A stretch of 34,696 nt of DNA from a virus: the UHGV virus genome UHGV-0412376, one strand, 5' to 3'. The position numbers were made by a program, and so were the translations under genes. Below are positions 67 to 34,696 of this stretch, piece after piece. The notes under the pieces are model-generated. The model was not told where the DNA came from. It saw only the letters and a program-made list of their open reading frames with translations, and made no database searches. Positions within the stretch are counted from its first letter, which is position 1, and each line of letters opens with the position of its first letter.

Positions 67-216
67 ATGTCAGGTAACGTAATGCTTGTTTTTTTCTTGC
101 TGGCCGTTCTGTTCGGGTTCACTTGTTTCCGACTCGGCATTATTGAAGGTTGCCGGAGAACCACGAAGAGGATCTTGCGAAACATCACTCAAAAGAATGA
201 GAAGAAGAAATGAACT
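67..216 (+). CDS. Small hydrophobic peptide of 49 aa, with one predicted TM helix and a basic C-terminal tail.
   Basis: ATG at 67 with a weak AG-rich stretch upstream. The translation is MSGNVMLVFFLLAVLFGFTCFRLGIIEGCRRTTKRILRNITQKNEKKK. It lies in the AT-rich left flank and is shorter than the ORF-track cutoff. Confidence 0.25.
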
Positions 217-272
217 CGTCAATCTCCTCGTTTCCTCGTTCGGCGATCAAAGATTCCTTAGGTGTGCATATC

Positions 273-300
273 AATGTAGATGTGTCTACTTATCTACATT
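273..300. promoter_or_regulatory. Operator-like palindrome upstream of the first RHH gene.
   Basis: Perfect 9-bp inverted repeat AATGTAGAT-(10 nt)-ATCTACATT. Inner GTAGA/TCTAC repeats are nested inside it. It lies about 50-75 bp upstream of the ATG at 348. Confidence 0.4.
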
Positions 301-347
301 ACGCGCTTAATTCTAATGATGAAAAAAAATTAGGAAGGAGATCAGGA

Positions 348-641
348 ATGATGCTGGATGAAAAAAATGTAAAAAAGATGAAAAATAGTGTTGACTGGTG
401 GTTAACCACCGATTATGTTGAGCGCATGCCAAGTCAACGGAAGATAGACAAAAAACAGATTTCAGTATGGATCCCCATCGTCCTCTTCCGAAAATTTCAA
501 AAGAGAGCAAAAGAACTGAATATGACGATGACTGAAATCATTACCGCTTATTTAGTTCAACAAACTCAAAACGTAATCCTTACACCCGAAGATTATGAAA
601 ACATCGCCCGAGAAATACGAGAAAAAGCAAATAACAATTAA
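348..641 (+). CDS. Ribbon-helix-helix (Arc/CopG-like) DNA-binding protein.
   Basis: RBS GGAAGGAG lies 7 nt upstream of the ATG at 348, inside ORF 210..641. The segment KKQISVWIPIVLFRKFQKRAKELNMTMTEIITAYL is a typical RHH beta-strand plus helix motif. Confidence 0.55.
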   Translation: MMLDEKNVKKMKNSVDWWLTTDYVERMPSQRKIDKKQISVWIPIVLFRKFQKRAKELNMTMTEIITAYLVQQTQNVILTPEDYENIAREIREKANNN

Positions 642-831
642 CCTCCCTATTGACTTATTTGAGCAAATAAAATTGATTGCGCGGAAAGAACAAAGATCAG
701 TTTCCGGGCAAGTAGTTTTTTTACTCGCGGGTGGTGAACCACCTATAAAAAAGAGAATCAAAAAGAAGGGAGTTTTTTTACCTATAGGTGGTGAACCACC
801 TATAAAGAAAACCGAAACCGCCAACCGATAA
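595..831 (+). CDS. Second RHH-type DNA-binding protein, paralogous to the upstream one. The extent of its C-terminus is uncertain.
   Basis: KKQITINLPIDLFEQIKLIARKEQRSVSGQVVFLL matches the RHH pattern. Its 3' third is occupied by two operator-like DNA repeats (GGEPPIKK x2 in the protein), so the true stop may be an annotation artefact. Confidence 0.4.
   Translation: MKTSPEKYEKKQITINLPIDLFEQIKLIARKEQRSVSGQVVFLLAGGEPPIKKRIKKKGVFLPIGGEPPIKKTETANR
730..806. repeat. Two copies of the 20-bp repeat GGTGGTGAACCACCTATAAA (730-749 and 787-806). Copy 2 forms a 10+2+10 palindrome TATAGGTGGT-GA-ACCACCTATA.
   Basis: Exact 20/20 direct repeat read from the sequence, with a GGTGG/CCACC inverted-repeat core. 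The arrangement resembles operator half-sites. Confidence 0.6.
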
Positions 832-842
832 ATATGGATTAC

Positions 843-1327
843 TTAGCTCAGCAAGTGGGGATTCTTTTTGAGATACTCCCAGGCAACATCGGTGATGTTG
901 ACGTCAAACCCGGTCACAATGCTTCCATAAAAGGAGAGCCGAATAAGAATGCCGGCTGCTATCAGACCATTTACGATGCCGTCCCTATCATCAAATCTCT
1001 GTGTGCGGGTATCGAAGAAGATATATCTGAGAAGAACATCTTTCTCTTTTGGAGTGAGAGCATGGAGACGCTTGATCACCTTTTTACGGGATTTTGCCTC
1101 GGCGTAAGAGGATTTGATTATATTCCAAACCCTTTCCAGCAGGGCGCATCCGGAAAAAAGGAACACGTACCCCGCAATATCGCGGTAATCATGATCCGCA
1201 TAGCTGATATGCAGGGCCTCAAGAACGCTTTGAGGAGCGAAAAGATAAACACCTGTTGCGGAAAAGATTATGCCTGCATAATTGCAAGCGAATTTAAGCA
1301 GTTCTGCCAAGTATTGGAAAAAAACCA
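843..1327 (-). CDS. Hypothetical protein with hydrophobic TM-like segments. The strand assignment is ambiguous.
   Basis: The minus-strand ORF (MVFFQYLAELLKF...IAAGILIRLSFYGSIVTGF...) has helix-like hydrophobic stretches. The overlapping + strand ORF 834..1343 is hydrophilic and looks like its shadow. Neither candidate has a Shine-Dalgarno sequence. Confidence 0.3.
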
Positions 1328-1376
1328 TAAACCCAGAGGATAGGCTTAAACGGATGTATAGGCAATAGCTTTTACA

Positions 1377-2189
1377 TTGAACCCAATAAGAAGAAACATG
1401 AACAACAACATAGTACCATTCAACAATGCCGCGCTTGGCTGTTCTGTCCGGACAGTCATCATCAACGAAGAACCGTGGTTCGTCGGTAAAGACGTGTGCT
1501 CCGCTCTTGGCTACGCCAATGAAACCGACGCAATGAACCGCCATTGCAAGGGGGTCGTGAAACGCTACCCCCTTCAAACTTCCGGTGGAGTACAGGAGAT
1601 TCGCGTTATCAGCGAACCGGACATGATGCGTTTAATCTGCGGTTCCAAGCTGGAATCAGCAAAGCGATTCGAGGCATGGGTTTTTGAAGAAGTCCTCCCG
1701 ACGATACGCAAGCACGGCATCTATGCCACAGGCGAGAAACTTCTTGAACTGATTTCCAAGCCGGAGAACGCCCTTAAAGTCTTCCAGGCCCTCAAAGATG
1801 AACAGGACAAGAGGAAGTCTCTTGAAGCGAAGATAGAAGAGGACGCGCCCTACACGGAATTCGGAAAGAGCGTGGAAGTTTCCGAAGGCTGCATGCTGAT
1901 AGGAGAATTCGCCAAGGTCCTGGCACAGAACGGACGGGAAATCGGACAGAACCGGCTTTTTGAGCTGCTGCGCAATGAAGGCATCCTTGGGAAGACAGGG
2001 AACCGCCGCAACGTGCCGTCCCAGGAACATGTGGAAGCCGGTCGTTTTCGGGTCAGTTACCGGATTATCCAGCATGCGAGCGGAAGAGCGGAAAGCAAAG
2101 CAACACCGTATCTGACGCCTAAAGGTCAAGTATGGCTGTTGAAGCGGATGACGGGGAATAAAACCGAGCAGAAGGAGGCGAAGAAGTGA
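1377..2189 (+). CDS. ant: Phage antirepressor with an N-terminal Bro-N domain and a C-terminal KilAC/ANT domain.
   Basis: N-terminus PWFVGKDVCSALGYANETDAMNRHCKGV...AKRFEAWVFEEVLPTIRKHG matches the Bro-N pattern. The C-terminal half is antirepressor-like. The start is probably the ATG at 1398, since the codon at 1377 is TTG. Confidence 0.8.
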   Translation: MNPIRRNMNNNIVPFNNAALGCSVRTVIINEEPWFVGKDVCSALGYANETDAMNRHCKGVVKRYPLQTSGGVQEIRVISEPDMMRLICGSKLESAKRFEAWVFEEVLPTIRKHGIYATGEKLLELISKPENALKVFQALKDEQDKRKSLEAKIEEDAPYTEFGKSVEVSEGCMLIGEFAKVLAQNGREIGQNRLFELLRNEGILGKTGNRRNVPSQEHVEAGRFRVSYRIIQHASGRAESKATPYLTPKGQVWLLKRMTGNKTEQKEAKK

Positions 2190-2479
2190 AAGCGCTGGCC
2201 GCCCTCGTCTTCTCCGGGCTTGTTCTGTGCGGCTGTAATCCGCGCCCTTATGACCACATTTCAGGAGGGAACAAAGAGTGGATTATTAAGATCGAACAGC
2301 CAGGTCTTCGCGATATTTCTTTTTCCACTAACGACCCTGACTGCGTGAAATACCATGGTGATAATCGATATTATTCTACTCCGCCTATATCTAATAGCTA
2401 TCTGATCACTAAGCCGGACGGCGAGGAACTCTTTATATCCGGCACAGCGAGAATAACACGAAAGGAAGTGAAGAAATGA
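2186..2479 (+). CDS. Small lipoprotein with a signal peptide and an LVLCGC lipobox.
   Basis: The protein begins MKALAALVFSGLVLCGCNP. It has a GTG start overlapping the upstream stop. Confidence 0.45.
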   Translation: MKALAALVFSGLVLCGCNPRPYDHISGGNKEWIIKIEQPGLRDISFSTNDPDCVKYHGDNRYYSTPPISNSYLITKPDGEELFISGTARITRKEVKK

Positions 2480-3040: not shown

Positions 3041-3352
3041 ATGAGCGAAAATGACACAACCATGACCACCCTTGCGACCGCGCTGGAAACGCTAGCCGGA
3101 GTATTGCGGGAGCTGGCAACCACGCCTGTTCCTTCTACGCCTGAATCGTCTTCCGTCTCCATTTTCGGAGCAATCGAAAAGAAATACGCTAAAAGCTCCA
3201 CCTTAGCCACTTATTATGACATTTCATCCCGTCAGATGGATAACATCCTAGCACGGGCGGGAAAGAATGTAAGAAGGCTGGAAGGAGTCGGAAAAGGAAC
3301 CCTTTATAACATGGAAGACGTGGAAAAATACTTAACTAACAAAAGAAAATGA
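3041..3352 (+). CDS. HTH DNA-binding protein, possibly an excisionase (AlpA/Xis-like).
   Basis: STLATYYDISSRQMDNILARAG...LYNMEDVEKYL resembles the Xis-type winged helix. It sits in the early region. Confidence 0.4.
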   Translation: MSENDTTMTTLATALETLAGVLRELATTPVPSTPESSSVSIFGAIEKKYAKSSTLATYYDISSRQMDNILARAGKNVRRLEGVGKGTLYNMEDVEKYLTNKRK

Positions 3353-12418: not shown

Positions 12419-12492
12419 CGCAGGGTGGTGAAACGGTATCACGCGGGGTTCCTGTCCCCGAATCGAAGGTCCAACTCCTTCCCCTGCAACCA
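12419..12492 (+). tRNA. tRNA-Arg (anticodon CCU)-like gene with an encoded CCA end and several non-canonical positions.
   Basis: Hand-folded cloverleaf: acceptor pairs 2-7 with 66-71, U8, and D-stem GTGA/TCAC with loop AACGGTA (A14, G18, G19, A21). The anticodon stem CGGGG/CCCCG carries loop TTCCTGT (U33, anticodon CCT). The T-stem is GAAGG/CCTTC with loop TCCAACT (G53:C61, C56, A58), followed by discriminator A and CCA. The oddities are a C1-A72 mismatch, C55 and G37. Confidence 0.5.
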
Positions 12493-32052: not shown

Positions 32053-33240
32053 CTAACGGGCCAGTCCGACGGCAATCTTGCTCATGGCCTCCTGAACGTC
32101 CGCCGAATCCGGGCGGAAATACACCCGTTCAATCTCTTCGGAGTCGTGGCCGACGATGAAGCGGCACAAATCCGGGGACACACCGGCCAGGCGCAGGACG
32201 GTCACGGCGGTCGCCCGTAGGCTGTGGAAGCTCTTTTCCGAAAGCCGGTGCCGGTCGCCTCTCACTTCCCCGGGCATCTCTCGGATGATTCCGTACGTTT
32301 TCAATAACGTCGTGAACTCCGTGGAAAGCTTGTCGGAACGTCCGCCGGCATGGGCATGGCGAAGCGCGGCCAGGGGAAACACATAATCGTTCACCCGGTT
32401 GACCAGACGCCTTTCCAGAACCTCTTTCAAGGGTTGGATGATCGGCTTGTTCATGCGGCGCCGGCTCTTCTGCGTGGTCATGAACAGGAAGGAGTTCTTC
32501 AGGTCAATCTGGTCCCATTTCAGCGTCGCCAGGTCTCCGAGGCGCTGTCCTCCGGTGTAGAGGCACACCCGCACCAGATCCGGCCATTCATCCGGGAACC
32601 GTTCAATGATGGTGTTCACTTCCTCCATGGTGAAGGCGCCGCGCAACTGCTTTTCCGCCTGGTGGTCCGCCCGGGAAGGCATGACGCCCCGGAACGGATT
32701 CCGGGAAAGGATCTCCCGGTCTACAGCGATATTGAACGCGGTGGACAGCGTGGACACATAGCGGATGACGGTTCCGGCGGAAACGCGCTCCATTTCCGTT
32801 TCTACAAAATCCTTCGCCATCCCTTTATTCAGGGCGGCCAGCGGCATATTCCGCCGGTCCCCCAGGAACGCCAGAAGCCGGCGGACGGCCATGCCGTCCC
32901 GCTCATAGGCCCGCTTCTTGTTTTTCCTCCCGTCCAGCCAGTCAAAAAGGAACCGCGTCACCGTCATGCCGTTCATGGTGGCTTTCAGCACGCCGGCCTG
33001 GTCCCCGGCAATGGCCTTCACCTTGTCCAGGTCAAAAACCCCGTACCGGGCTTCTTTCTCCATCTCCTGGGCCACCAGCCGCGCCCGTGCTTCATTCTGG
33101 GACATGACCGATTTCTTATTGGCTCCCGGAAGAAGCGCCTTGGGAACCACGTCGATGCCGGTGGTCTTCCGAAGCTCTTTGCCGTCCAGGGAGCGGAAGA
33201 CGGCCACCCATTTGTTGTTGCGTTTGATGATGCCTGCCAT
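32053..33240 (-). CDS. int: Tyrosine-type phage integrase.
   Basis: C-terminal catalytic signature: ...LGDLATLKWDQIDL..., FHSLRATAV (HxLR) and GHDSEEIERVYFRPD (catalytic Tyr). It occupies the terminal position on the opposite strand. Confidence 0.9.
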   Translation of the reverse strand: MAGIIKRNNKWVAVFRSLDGKELRKTTGIDVVPKALLPGANKKSVMSQNEARARLVAQEMEKEARYGVFDLDKVKAIAGDQAGVLKATMNGMTVTRFLFDWLDGRKNKKRAYERDGMAVRRLLAFLGDRRNMPLAALNKGMAKDFVETEMERVSAGTVIRYVSTLSTAFNIAVDREILSRNPFRGVMPSRADHQAEKQLRGAFTMEEVNTIIERFPDEWPDLVRVCLYTGGQRLGDLATLKWDQIDLKNSFLFMTTQKSRRRMNKPIIQPLKEVLERRLVNRVNDYVFPLAALRHAHAGGRSDKLSTEFTTLLKTYGIIREMPGEVRGDRHRLSEKSFHSLRATAVTVLRLAGVSPDLCRFIVGHDSEEIERVYFRPDSADVQEAMSKIAVGLAR

Positions 33241-33656: not shown

Positions 33657-33986
33657 TTAAACATATTTTTGAACTGATTTTACCATGTACCCAACGAGGG
33701 TTGATAAAAATCCAGTAGTCATGATGTACCGTTTCTCTTCTACAATCCAGCACCATTTTTCAGGGAGAACGTAATTTAAAGTAAGCGTCGCCAATGCTAC
33801 TATGCAACAAATAACAGCGGTAACCAGCACCCATTTCCAAGCCTGATGCACAGTATGCTTTTTCTCTTTTTCCAAAGCTACTTCATCTCTTTTAGTTTCC
33901 TCTTCTATTTTTTCTATTGTCGGCACAGGCGGAGCCTTGTCCGAATTTACCAAGGCTTTGATCTGGTCATCTAGTTTGGTAGTCAT
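33657..33986 (-). CDS. Small membrane protein; putative toxin partner of the Panacea-domain protein (PanT-like).
   Basis: 109 aa with a charged N-terminus, then the TM helix WKWVLVTAVICCIVALATLTLNYVL and a second hydrophobic segment. Its ATG lies 4 nt after the upstream stop, giving translational coupling. Confidence 0.5.
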   Translation of the reverse strand: MTTKLDDQIKALVNSDKAPPVPTIEKIEEETKRDEVALEKEKKHTVHQAWKWVLVTAVICCIVALATLTLNYVLPEKWCWIVEEKRYIMTTGFLSTLVGYMVKSVQKYV

Positions 33987-33990
33987 TTTT

Positions 33991-34467
33991 TCAAGAAGCA
34001 GAGGGGGTCAGCATTCGGTCAAAATAAATAGCCATTTGCCAGAGGGGGATACGCGAATACTTTTTTTTCTCCCAAGCAGCAGCCCAAGGGGAGTTTGGTT
34101 GGTGAGAAAGTTCCACTAACTGGGGAGCACTCAATTTCCCAAGCTTGTCTACAACATTTTTGATTACATTTTTAGCGTCTTCATCGTCTGTAATCGCGTC
34201 AGGAGATGCTAAAAATCCGGTGATTGGGGTATCTCCCAAATGTTTCAGTTTTTTATAAAGTTCAGGAATGACGGGGCCATAAGTCCATGCTTGGATTTCT
34301 TCTGTAAATAGAGGGTGTTCTAATTGTTTCAGGGCGAATCCCTGCACGAAATAAGCCAGCTTCTGAATTTTCATGTTAGTTACAGATAAGCCTTGCTGCC
34401 AAGCTTCGGTTAATATCTGGTTGGCTATTGCCTCGATGCTATAGGATTTATATTCTATTTTGCACAT
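33991..34467 (-). CDS. Panacea-domain (DUF4065, SocA/PanA-like) antitoxin-type protein.
   Basis: N-terminus ANQILTEAWQQGLSVTNMKIQKLAYFVQGFALKQLEHPLFTEEIQAWTYGPVIPELYKKLK matches the Panacea pattern (..a.....g..vt..KLqKLlYyaqg..L.....pLf.e.ieAW.yGPVvpe.Y). Confidence 0.65.
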   Translation of the reverse strand: MCKIEYKSYSIEAIANQILTEAWQQGLSVTNMKIQKLAYFVQGFALKQLEHPLFTEEIQAWTYGPVIPELYKKLKHLGDTPITGFLASPDAITDDEDAKNVIKNVVDKLGKLSAPQLVELSHQPNSPWAAAWEKKKYSRIPLWQMAIYFDRMLTPSAS

Positions 34468-34684
34468 GTCTCAAGGGGCTGGGATGAACCTATAATATCA
34501 TTGGACCAATAAGCAAGACAAACGTTTCATTAGCCTGCATAGGAGTTCCTGCATACACAACTGGCATCTTTCAATGATTTCATGGAATGTCATGACTTGT
34601 CATCCGGTGAACGGGAAATTGATGACAAAACGTCTTAACGGGGTCACAAGACATCAAATCTCATGAAAAACTGGAAATCCTACC

Positions 34685-34696
34685 CCCCCCCCCCCC
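34685..34696. repeat. Poly-C homopolymer of at least 12 nt at the window edge.
   Basis: Read directly from the sequence; the window ends inside the run. Confidence 0.6.

Follow-up and report, generated by a model that had tools for sequence, protein, structure and literature searches.

The stretch of DNA analysed here, UHGV-0412376 (34,696 nucleotides (nt); "the window" in what follows), is the complete genome of a temperate Akkermansia phage. Close to its left end lie two overlapping genes for ribbon-helix-helix (RHH) proteins, called RHH-1 and RHH-2, together with three copies of a short inverted repeat that we regard as putative operators (O1, O2 and O3). The question that these elements pose is whether they govern the immunity of the phage, and how they relate to an antirepressor gene (ant) that lies further downstream. 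In the numbering of the window, the elements of this RHH module are the following:

210 to 641, plus strand: RHH-1, long form, 143 amino acids (aa), with an N-terminal part that precedes the C-terminal RHH domain and an additional helix
391 to 419, plus strand: P1, an internal sigma-70-like promoter found by promoter scan (TTGACT at 391-396, 17 nt, TATGTT at 414-419)
397 to 410, no strand assigned: predicted operator O1, GGTGGTTAACCACC, in the spacer of P1
426 to 641, plus strand: RHH-1, short form, 71 aa, predicted from the invariant internal Met73
595 to 831, plus strand: RHH-2, 78 aa, with the RHH core at residues 10-45 and a tail encoded by O2, O3 and the T-runs
716 to 743, plus strand: a run of seven T (716-722), 7 nt, and predicted operator O2, GGTGGTGAACCACC (730-743)
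773 to 800, plus strand: a run of seven T (773-779), 7 nt, and predicted operator O3, GGTGGTGAACCACC (787-800), the last element before a variable cargo slot

For comparison, 43 related loci (numbered with the prefix L) were gathered from viral contigs, metagenomes, genomes and assemblies, with the scan of genome contigs contributing just 2. The tally of gene order covers 40 loci, the alignment of operators and RHH-2 tail comprises 27 unique related sequences, and P1 was compared in 15 sequence variants from 5 lineages. Library scans (Pfam, PHROG) covered about 40 open reading frames (ORFs) of the window and were not exhaustive. A named relative is phage DTMo-2021a (CP084202.1, our L001), with approximately 90% identity across 69% of the window's first 25 kb.

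RHH-2 is a member of the ribbon-helix-helix (Arc/MetJ/CopG) superfamily. It passes the Pfam RHH_5 threshold (27.3 bits against a cut-off of 26), and its AlphaFold model consists of an extended segment (residues 10-18), two helices (19-32 and 36-44) and a disordered tail. The best PDB matches returned by Foldseek are nearly all RHH proteins (AmrZ, CopG, CdbA, Arc, AtaR, PutA, FitA and ParD), and the model superimposes on AmrZ, CopG and Arc with a root-mean-square deviation of 1.8-1.9 Å over 36-37 residues, at expectation values (E) of at least 0.3. For RHH-1, the evidence for an RHH-type protein is good but indirect. It matches PHROG 582 ("Arc-like repressor") with an E of 4e-4, aligns to the RHH-2 family profile in hhalign with a probability of 81% and an E of 1e-5, and carries a KKQIS strand motif as RHH-2 does. 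Its AlphaFold model has a strand-helix-helix arrangement at residues 81-120 (strand 81-89, helices 90-103 and 107-120), with a local predicted local distance difference test (pLDDT) score of 74-83. The initial annotation of this DNA, made from the sequence alone, had claimed two paralogous RHH proteins, and this claim is supported by the family matches and by the KKQI(S/T) strand present in both.

The frame of the long form of RHH-1 (210-641) is open and conserved in all five lineages. Its N-terminal part contains the conserved motifs V.V.VP.YLHYAL, which is kept even in the most distant relatives, and DEKN..KMK, and public gene calls for RHH-1 are mostly 141-172 aa long, with a few shorter ones. 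Met73 (ATG 426), the predicted start of the short form, is invariant among the relatives. Two loci, L008 and L029, have lost the first 46 codons of the long form; here no open frame extends beyond the codon that corresponds to ATG 348, and an ORF of 97 aa is left. The N-terminal 72 residues of RHH-1 (210-425) are modelled as a strand plus helices, and the model, together with weak fold matches to TraY (see below), hints at a degenerate second RHH unit in this half of the protein. An internal duplication into two RHH units was considered and rejected, as the N- and C-terminal halves do not match significantly in hhalign (E 0.06). The start of RHH-2 overlaps the end of RHH-1 by 47 nt, and this overlap is kept in L037, L040 and L042.

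The sequence GGTGG-N4-CCACC occurs at exactly three sites within 404 bp and nowhere else in the 34.7 kb of the window, with 0.01 expected. Across the relatives its arms are invariant, and the central dinucleotide drifts (TA, GA, TC, GT, GC). In the alignment of the RHH-2 tail, the operators and the T-runs before O2 and O3 form fully conserved islands, whereas the remainder of the tail changes almost everywhere; the encoded peptide thus is variable except over the DNA motifs. Relative to DTMo-2021a, all five substitutions in the tail change an amino acid (5/5, read from the difference list), and at O1 of L039 the peptide changes from WWL to RWC with the arms unchanged. Since arms and T-runs are kept while the peptide changes, it is the DNA, and not the peptide it encodes, that is under selection. 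In L037, L040 and L042 the last site falls beyond the stop codon of RHH-2, and is thus intergenic and non-coding there. T-run and operator are separated by exactly 7 nt throughout the lineages, and this also holds for the non-coding units.

Loss of the gene and loss of the sites were also compared. L008 and L029, which lack RHH-2, are also devoid of O2 and O3, and their O1 is degraded (GGTGGTTAGTCACC); L041 keeps a perfect O1 without RHH-2. The repeats at 730-806 had initially been put forward as operators; they are present and show operator-like conservation, and they probably act as protein-binding sites, so that this proposal needs amending only in that a third copy, at 397-410, had been overlooked. 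In L011 and L032, an internal fragment of ant (TPGGVQEIRV) is fused in frame to RHH-2 right after a single flipped operator, GGTGGTTCACCACC. The arrangement is a deletion scar, and suggests that ant was formerly placed directly behind the operators in that lineage.

O1 fills the 17-nt spacer of P1, and ATG 426 follows 6 nt past its -10 element. This geometry, TT(G/T)ACN-17-NANNNT-6-ATG, is held in 15/15 variants from all 5 lineages, while the residues encoded over the "-10" vary freely (DYVER, EHSTS, MHNTG and others). Akkermansia promoters are known to have -35 and -10 elements, and about 10% of the mapped transcription start sites in this organism are leaderless (PMC4782308). P1 would thus be an operator-controlled internal promoter that gives rise to a leaderless mRNA for the 71-aa form of RHH-1 and for RHH-2.

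Another inverted repeat of the region deserves mention, because it had initially been placed in the RHH-1 promoter:

273 to 300, no strand assigned: 9-bp inverted repeat AATGTAGAT-N10-ATCTACATT, within the RHH-1 coding sequence

The repeat itself is real, but it is not in a promoter, since 210-641 is open in the relatives and 273-300 encodes NVDVSTYLHY in the 143-aa frame. Perfect 9-nt inverted repeats with a loop of at most 20 nt number 5 in the window as compared to 2.95 +/- 2.0 in shuffled sequences, and this particular one is lost in relatives at 80-94% protein identity. We therefore rejected it as an operator: it is coding, at chance level and not conserved, and probably has no such role.

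An argument for a function of the module in immunity comes from the comparison of lineages. At these positions, each of five related lineages has a 14-mer of its own, and within a lineage one 14-mer core is common to all sites, with O1 copies and the O2 of L037 differing from it at 1-3 positions. Operators and predicted DNA-facing strand residues of the proteins are as follows:

Window type: operator GGTGG-TNNA-CCACC; RHH-1 QSW, RHH-2 QTN
L037/L038: operator GGCGG-TGAA-CCGCC; RHH-1 QSW, RHH-2 QSN (residues of L037)
L040: operator GGCGG-ACAC-CCGCC; RHH-1 RTW, RHH-2 QTN
L041: operator GGTGG-AATA-CCACC (site 1 only); RHH-1 QAW, no RHH-2
L042/L043: operator GGTGT-CAAT-ACACC; RHH-1 ATW, RHH-2 PSK (residues of L042)

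The N-terminal arm of RHH-2 likewise differs, reading SPEKYEKKQ in the window type as compared to SQKKSEKKQ in L037 and L040. A primary immunity region is expected to have regulators and operators that co-vary among related phages with shared flanking genes, and such co-variation is found here. As far as can be judged from the aligned loci, all sites change in concert with the regulators, and this is the hallmark of an immunity determinant in phages, i.e., a heteroimmunity pattern.

What lies behind the module, in contrast, is variable. In the window, O3 is followed by three genes:

843 to 1328, minus strand: SieB-like superinfection exclusion gene, 161 aa (Pfam SieB PF14163, 4.2e-19, profile positions 7-147 of 147)
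1398 to 2189, plus strand: ant, Bro-N plus KilAC antirepressor-family protein, 263 aa (Pfam, PHROG)
2186 to 2479, plus strand: lipoprotein-like gene, 97 aa, whose GTG start overlaps the ant stop

Ant belongs, by its sequence matches, to the Bro-N/KilAC antirepressor family (Bro-N PF02498, 2e-22; KilAC PF03374, 2e-27; PHROG 130, 1e-85), as had been annotated. It was also correct that the RHH genes precede ant, though not in direct tandem, because the minus-strand SieB gene (843-1328) stands between RHH-2 and ant. A plus-strand ORF of 169 aa at 834-1343 was dismissed as a shadow of SieB; the codon-position test alone is weak in this case. Across the loci, the slot after O3 is occupied as follows:

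ant directly, its ATG 36 nt past O3: L002, L004, L015, L039
SieB cassette, then ant: window, L005
SieB, then a small helix-turn-helix (HTH) gene: DTMo-2021a, L016, L034
SieB, then early genes: four loci
lipoprotein gene, its GTG overlapping the RHH-2 stop: about twelve loci
early genes directly: several loci

Thus, ant is found behind the RHH/operator module in 6/40 loci, with SieB, the lipoprotein gene or early genes in the others. SieB is present in 13/40 and absent from L002 and L004, where ant abuts O3; to judge from this distribution it is an insertable cassette, with a predicted function in exclusion. In DTMo-2021a, a 71-aa AlpA/excisionase-like HTH gene (CP084202.1, 2951-3166) replaces ant exactly between the SieB cassette and the lipoprotein gene, and this swap, as read from the two sequences, shows a cassette exchange at the slot. 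In about 12 relatives, a homologue of the lipoprotein gene (39-92% identity) starts at the RHH-2 stop as GTGA; the product of 2186-2479 may be an exclusion factor expressed in the lysogen. The slot varies while the module is constant, and ant therefore is optional. In the window, the 69 bp before ant contain no copy of the operator, and since SieB is antisense, RHH control of ant would need read-through across SieB. RHH gating of ant would fit the gene order of L002, L004, L015 and L039.

The module has the same position in 40 loci: it adjoins the integrase and stands at the head of a one-strand genome with RecT, replication, packaging and lysis genes. From these findings we propose, with a probability of about 60%, that the region from approximately 34585 to 831 (read circularly) serves as a primary immunity region that is based on RHH proteins and whose three operators co-evolve, with ant carried as cargo instead of being what the module is for. 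What is directly seen comprises the folds and family matches, the positions of the motifs and their conservation, the co-variation and the variation in gene order.

Two paralogous RHH proteins would, in this proposal, replace the CI/Cro pair. RHH-1 (the 143-aa and the predicted 71-aa form) and RHH-2 would be co-transcribed from the same strand as the early and late genes, and RHH-1, RHH-2 or both would bind the three 14-bp operators through their 5-bp inverted arms. Occupancy of O1 would lead to autoregulation of short RHH-1 and RHH-2 from P1, and repressor on O2/O3 would most likely limit how much transcription from the immunity operon reaches the cargo slot and the early genes, possibly as a roadblock and possibly by forming a loop to O1. 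ant, SieB and the lipoprotein gene would be exchangeable cargo just behind this gate, with the window's ant another 600 bp downstream, beyond the opposite-strand SieB cassette. What we infer is which protein binds which site, where transcription starts, how O2 and O3 act (roadblock or looping) and that the module functions in lysogeny. No CI-like, HTH_3 or S24 protein was found among the approximately 40 window ORFs of the non-exhaustive scan, in agreement with what the initial annotation had stated, and because no CI-like repressor turned up, the RHH module is the best candidate for the lysogeny switch. The earlier suggestion of an RHH-based switch can thus be retained for the module as a candidate, whereas its restriction to the control of ant, which is found in 6/40 loci, cannot.

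Several points weigh against this proposal. The window type and L037 share QSW in RHH-1, yet their operator arms differ, and the window type and L040 share QTN in RHH-2, yet their operators differ; a one-protein code leading from strand residues to operator type thus was rejected, as it fails once per protein. Neither protein maps one-to-one onto operator type, so that the binder may be RHH-1, RHH-2 or both. Furthermore, at 14 bp the operator is shorter than would be expected for a classical RHH tetramer. The confidence of the structural models is low (pLDDT 60 for RHH-1 and 65 for RHH-2), and the fold-search E-values for both models are all at least 0.3, their weakness in the case of RHH-2 being due to the tiny domain. 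A Pfam search, initially recommended as a check on the RHH assignment, recognized RHH-2 and found no match for RHH-1. The GTGA overlap in about 12 relatives suggests co-expression of the following gene with RHH-2 rather than a tight block behind O3. A repressor of another type could be encoded among the window ORFs beyond those scanned. Akkermansia prophages are inducible (PMC8008629), and our literature search returned nothing on Akkermansia phage repressors or prophage control, nor any binding, transcript or genetic data for this phage or its relatives. Finally, a conserved -10 element was sought after O2 and O3 in all lineages, and none was recognizable.

As to the mode of action of O2 and O3, sigma-70 promoters whose spacer would contain one of these operators (in the window, TTTACT-18-TATAAA) were considered and rejected, as the "-10" reads TCTAAA or TGTAAA in DTMo-2021a and is unrelated in the other lineages, and minus-strand promoter readings of the two units fail by eye. 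Intrinsic termination was likewise rejected, since no U-run follows the stem on either strand. With neither a -10 nor a U-run, O2 and O3 therefore are neither ordinary promoters nor intrinsic terminators. Most likely, they block the path of transcription out of the immunity operon, serve as auxiliary operators that form a loop to O1, or do both. As a more speculative extension, which we regard as rather improbable, the units of T-run, 7 nt and operator might be repressor-dependent terminators, with two RHH paralogues (one of them in a long and a leaderless short form) jointly reading an operator that exists in at least five specificities. A bound RHH protein would stall RNA polymerase such that the RNA 3′ end lies in the U-tract, which would allow a hairpin-free release of the transcript. 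If this were true, immunity operon and lytic genes could be arranged head-to-tail on one strand, and read-through would be the switch to induction.

Instead of determining immunity, the RHH pair might form an autoregulated early (Cro-like) or accessory operon, with lysogeny being maintained by a factor that was not recognised. The co-direction of the RHH genes with the lytic genes, the translational coupling to the next gene in about 12 relatives and the lack of a promoter at O2/O3 would all agree with this, and the library scans covered part of the window ORFs. One candidate for such a factor is the product of 3041-3352, which has a weak "transcriptional repressor" match (PHROG 769, E 0.0065); however, when read from its sequence, this protein looks like an excisionase-type HTH, and the family scans gave no significant repressor-family match for it. 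Furthermore, the diversification of operators and regulators into five specificities is typical of immunity determinants, and the RHH module is the only regulator set beside the integrase in every genome context. We consider such an operon possible, though not likely.

The initial annotation had favoured an arrangement like immI of phage P22, i.e., a secondary immunity in which ant would be repressed by the RHH proteins, as it is by Arc and Mnt in P22, with ant expression as the switch. In favour of this, Ant is a genuine Bro-N/KilAC protein, in L002, L004, L015 and L039 the start codon of ant is found 36 nt past O3, and the ant remnant fused to O2 in L011/L032 indicates that ant beside the operators may be an old state. 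Nevertheless, ant is restricted to 6/40 loci while module and operators are constant, and DTMo-2021a is without it. In the window, the opposite-strand SieB intervenes and no operator precedes ant, and neither a divergent mnt-like gene nor, in the scanned ORFs, a CI/C2-type repressor as the target of Ant was found. The immI-like arrangement as such is not supported, since the window has no direct arc-ant operon, no divergent second repressor and, among the scanned ORFs, no separate immC, and ant-centred control of lysogeny by the RHH proteins seems doubtful to us.

It is considerably less plausible still that the palindromes are hairpins in the mRNA, serving processing, stability or termination, instead of protein-binding DNA. 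Each site can fold, the changes in the arms are compensatory, and O2 and O3 of the window can form a long stem with a minimum free energy of -40.5 kcal/mol (z = -4.4). However, the sites of a lineage keep an identical sequence and not pairing alone, O1 is located exactly in the promoter spacer, upstream of the predicted start, and the asymmetric centres in L040 and L042 make a long O2/O3 stem impossible; in addition, no U-run follows any of the hairpins, and the sites have no match in Rfam. The least credible of the alternatives, that the RHH proteins are antitoxins of toxin-antitoxin systems or partition or copy-control proteins of the ParG/omega type, with the repeats as autoregulatory or centromere sites, can appeal to the commonness of RHH antitoxins and ParG-like proteins, to weak PHROG partition matches of RHH-2 (E 0.12-0.15) and to the gene for a small membrane protein before RHH-1, but it founders on the lack of a conserved partner toxin or ATPase (the downstream gene varies), on other lineages that lack this 48-aa gene, on empty PADLOC and NCBIfam searches of the RHH module, and on the fact that the phage integrates, having a tyrosine integrase.

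Upstream of RHH-1, the primary immunity region that we propose would include two further features:

34585 to 34696, continuing circularly into 1 to 66, no strand assigned: conserved non-coding block, presumed upstream promoter (P0) region
67 to 213, plus strand: 48-aa membrane protein gene, a called ORF and the first gene of the operon in the window lineage

The part of the block at 34585-34696 contains TGTCAT repeats (TGTCAT-GACT-TGTCAT), an 8-bp inverted repeat (TTGTCATC-N16-GATGACAA), the motif GGTGAACGG and a poly-C tract at 34683-34696, and it is kept in the relatives regardless of the left neighbour, be it an integrase on either strand or the Panacea pair described below. No promoter was identified in 34585-34696, and P0 is placed here provisionally. 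The part GTCAT..GGTGAACGG is kept in lineages with other operator types, with GCATGACACGTCATGCGGTGAACGG in L037 and L041-L043. Since it is kept across operator types, it is probably the site of a different, conserved factor, or else part of the upstream promoter. The poly-C tract (C14 in the window, roughly C8 to C15 in relatives), which continues circularly to position 1, lies approximately 70 nt upstream of the operon of the 48-aa gene and the RHH genes; it may provide the upstream promoter region with a slipped-strand switch, or may be merely an assembly break point. The stop of the 48-aa gene overlaps the RHH-1 start as ATGA (210-213), and in comparison with DTMo-2021a, 10/17 substitutions within 67-213 fall on third codon positions (counted from the difference list). 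Lineages of the L037 type are without this gene.

With respect to the genome as a whole, the plus strand carries nearly all genes of the window, in the order RecT and RecE-like recombination genes, RuvC-like resolvase, methyltransferase and replication initiator, followed by terminase, portal, protease, major head protein, tail fibre gene and endolysin. The minus strand carries, at the right end, the tyrosine integrase (32053-33240) as well as a SocA/Panacea gene and a membrane-protein gene. Read circularly, the RHH module thus comes directly after the lysogeny end and heads the rightward genes. Between the terminase and portal genes, the phage encodes a tRNA-Arg (anticodon CCT; 12419-12492, plus strand), which was the sole match in the Rfam scan. 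The protein with the SocA/Panacea domain (Pfam 1.7e-18) is encoded beside a membrane protein of 109 aa at 33657-34467 on the minus strand, and the two together resemble a toxin-antitoxin or defence accessory. Of the loci fetched, only L021, L024 and L028 were found to have a whole Panacea gene, with a fragment in L008 and L029; DTMo-2021a is without it.

If our proposal of an RHH-based primary immunity region is correct, this phage would provide a case of bacterial primary immunity that is built on RHH proteins and has its operators embedded in coding sequence. The model is testable, as it comprises two proteins, three 14-bp sites, a predicted leaderless start at 426 and five natural specificity variants. 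Akkermansia muciniphila ranks among the major commensals of the gut and is a candidate for therapeutic use, and the operator/repressor sets are possible orthogonal regulatory parts for the genetically difficult Akkermansia.

How does the module compare to known systems? With P22 immI (mnt - arc - ant) it shares two small RHH repressors near an antirepressor gene, operators made of inverted half-sites, one of them overlapping a promoter, and superinfection-exclusion genes in the region; in P22, sieA adjoins mnt. Unlike in immI, the RHH genes are here in tandem on the same strand, with an overlap of 47 nt, and not divergent, so that there is no Pant/Pmnt layout, and one operator set is common to three sites. 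Furthermore, ant is here an optional cargo (6/40 loci), separated from the operators by SieB in the window, and no immC/C2 repressor was found as a target of Ant among the approximately 40 ORFs of the scan, which was not exhaustive. A position of ant directly after the Arc-like gene, as in immI, is not found in the window but in L002, L004, L015 and L039.

In functional terms, the module would appear closer to a primary immunity region of the lambda type than to immI. Like lambda (cI-rex, PRM, OR/OL), it would have a repressor promoter that is subject to autoregulation and is predicted to give a leaderless transcript. It also has exclusion or accessory genes behind the repressor gene and several operators that may cooperate at a distance, and its operator/repressor specificity diversifies among otherwise similar phages. 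Unlike in lambda, the proteins have the RHH and not the HTH fold and are without a LexA-like cleavage domain, their genes run in the same direction as the lytic genes, and the operators lie within coding sequence.

Small RHH proteins that act on short repeated sites at their own and early promoters are known from F55, a lysogeny regulator of the archaeal virus SSV1, and from the plasmid autoregulators CopG and omega. The proteins described here resemble them as small RHH regulators with short repeated sites, binding being predicted in our case; hosts and replicons differ, and no sequence relationship is detectable, as profile searches of the RHH-1 and RHH-2 families against PDB sequences were empty. 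TraY of the F plasmid, which has two RHH repeats per chain, offers a further parallel, since TraY chains are the top fold-search matches of the 143-aa RHH-1 model, though these matches are weak (E at least 1.1, template modelling (TM) scores of 0.36-0.54, pLDDT 60). Being located within a gene, 333-390 bp beyond the regulated promoter, the downstream operator copies are reminiscent of auxiliary operators such as lac O2 and of protein roadblocks; unlike these, the downstream copies carry a T-run fixed 7 nt upstream and mark the border to the next genes.

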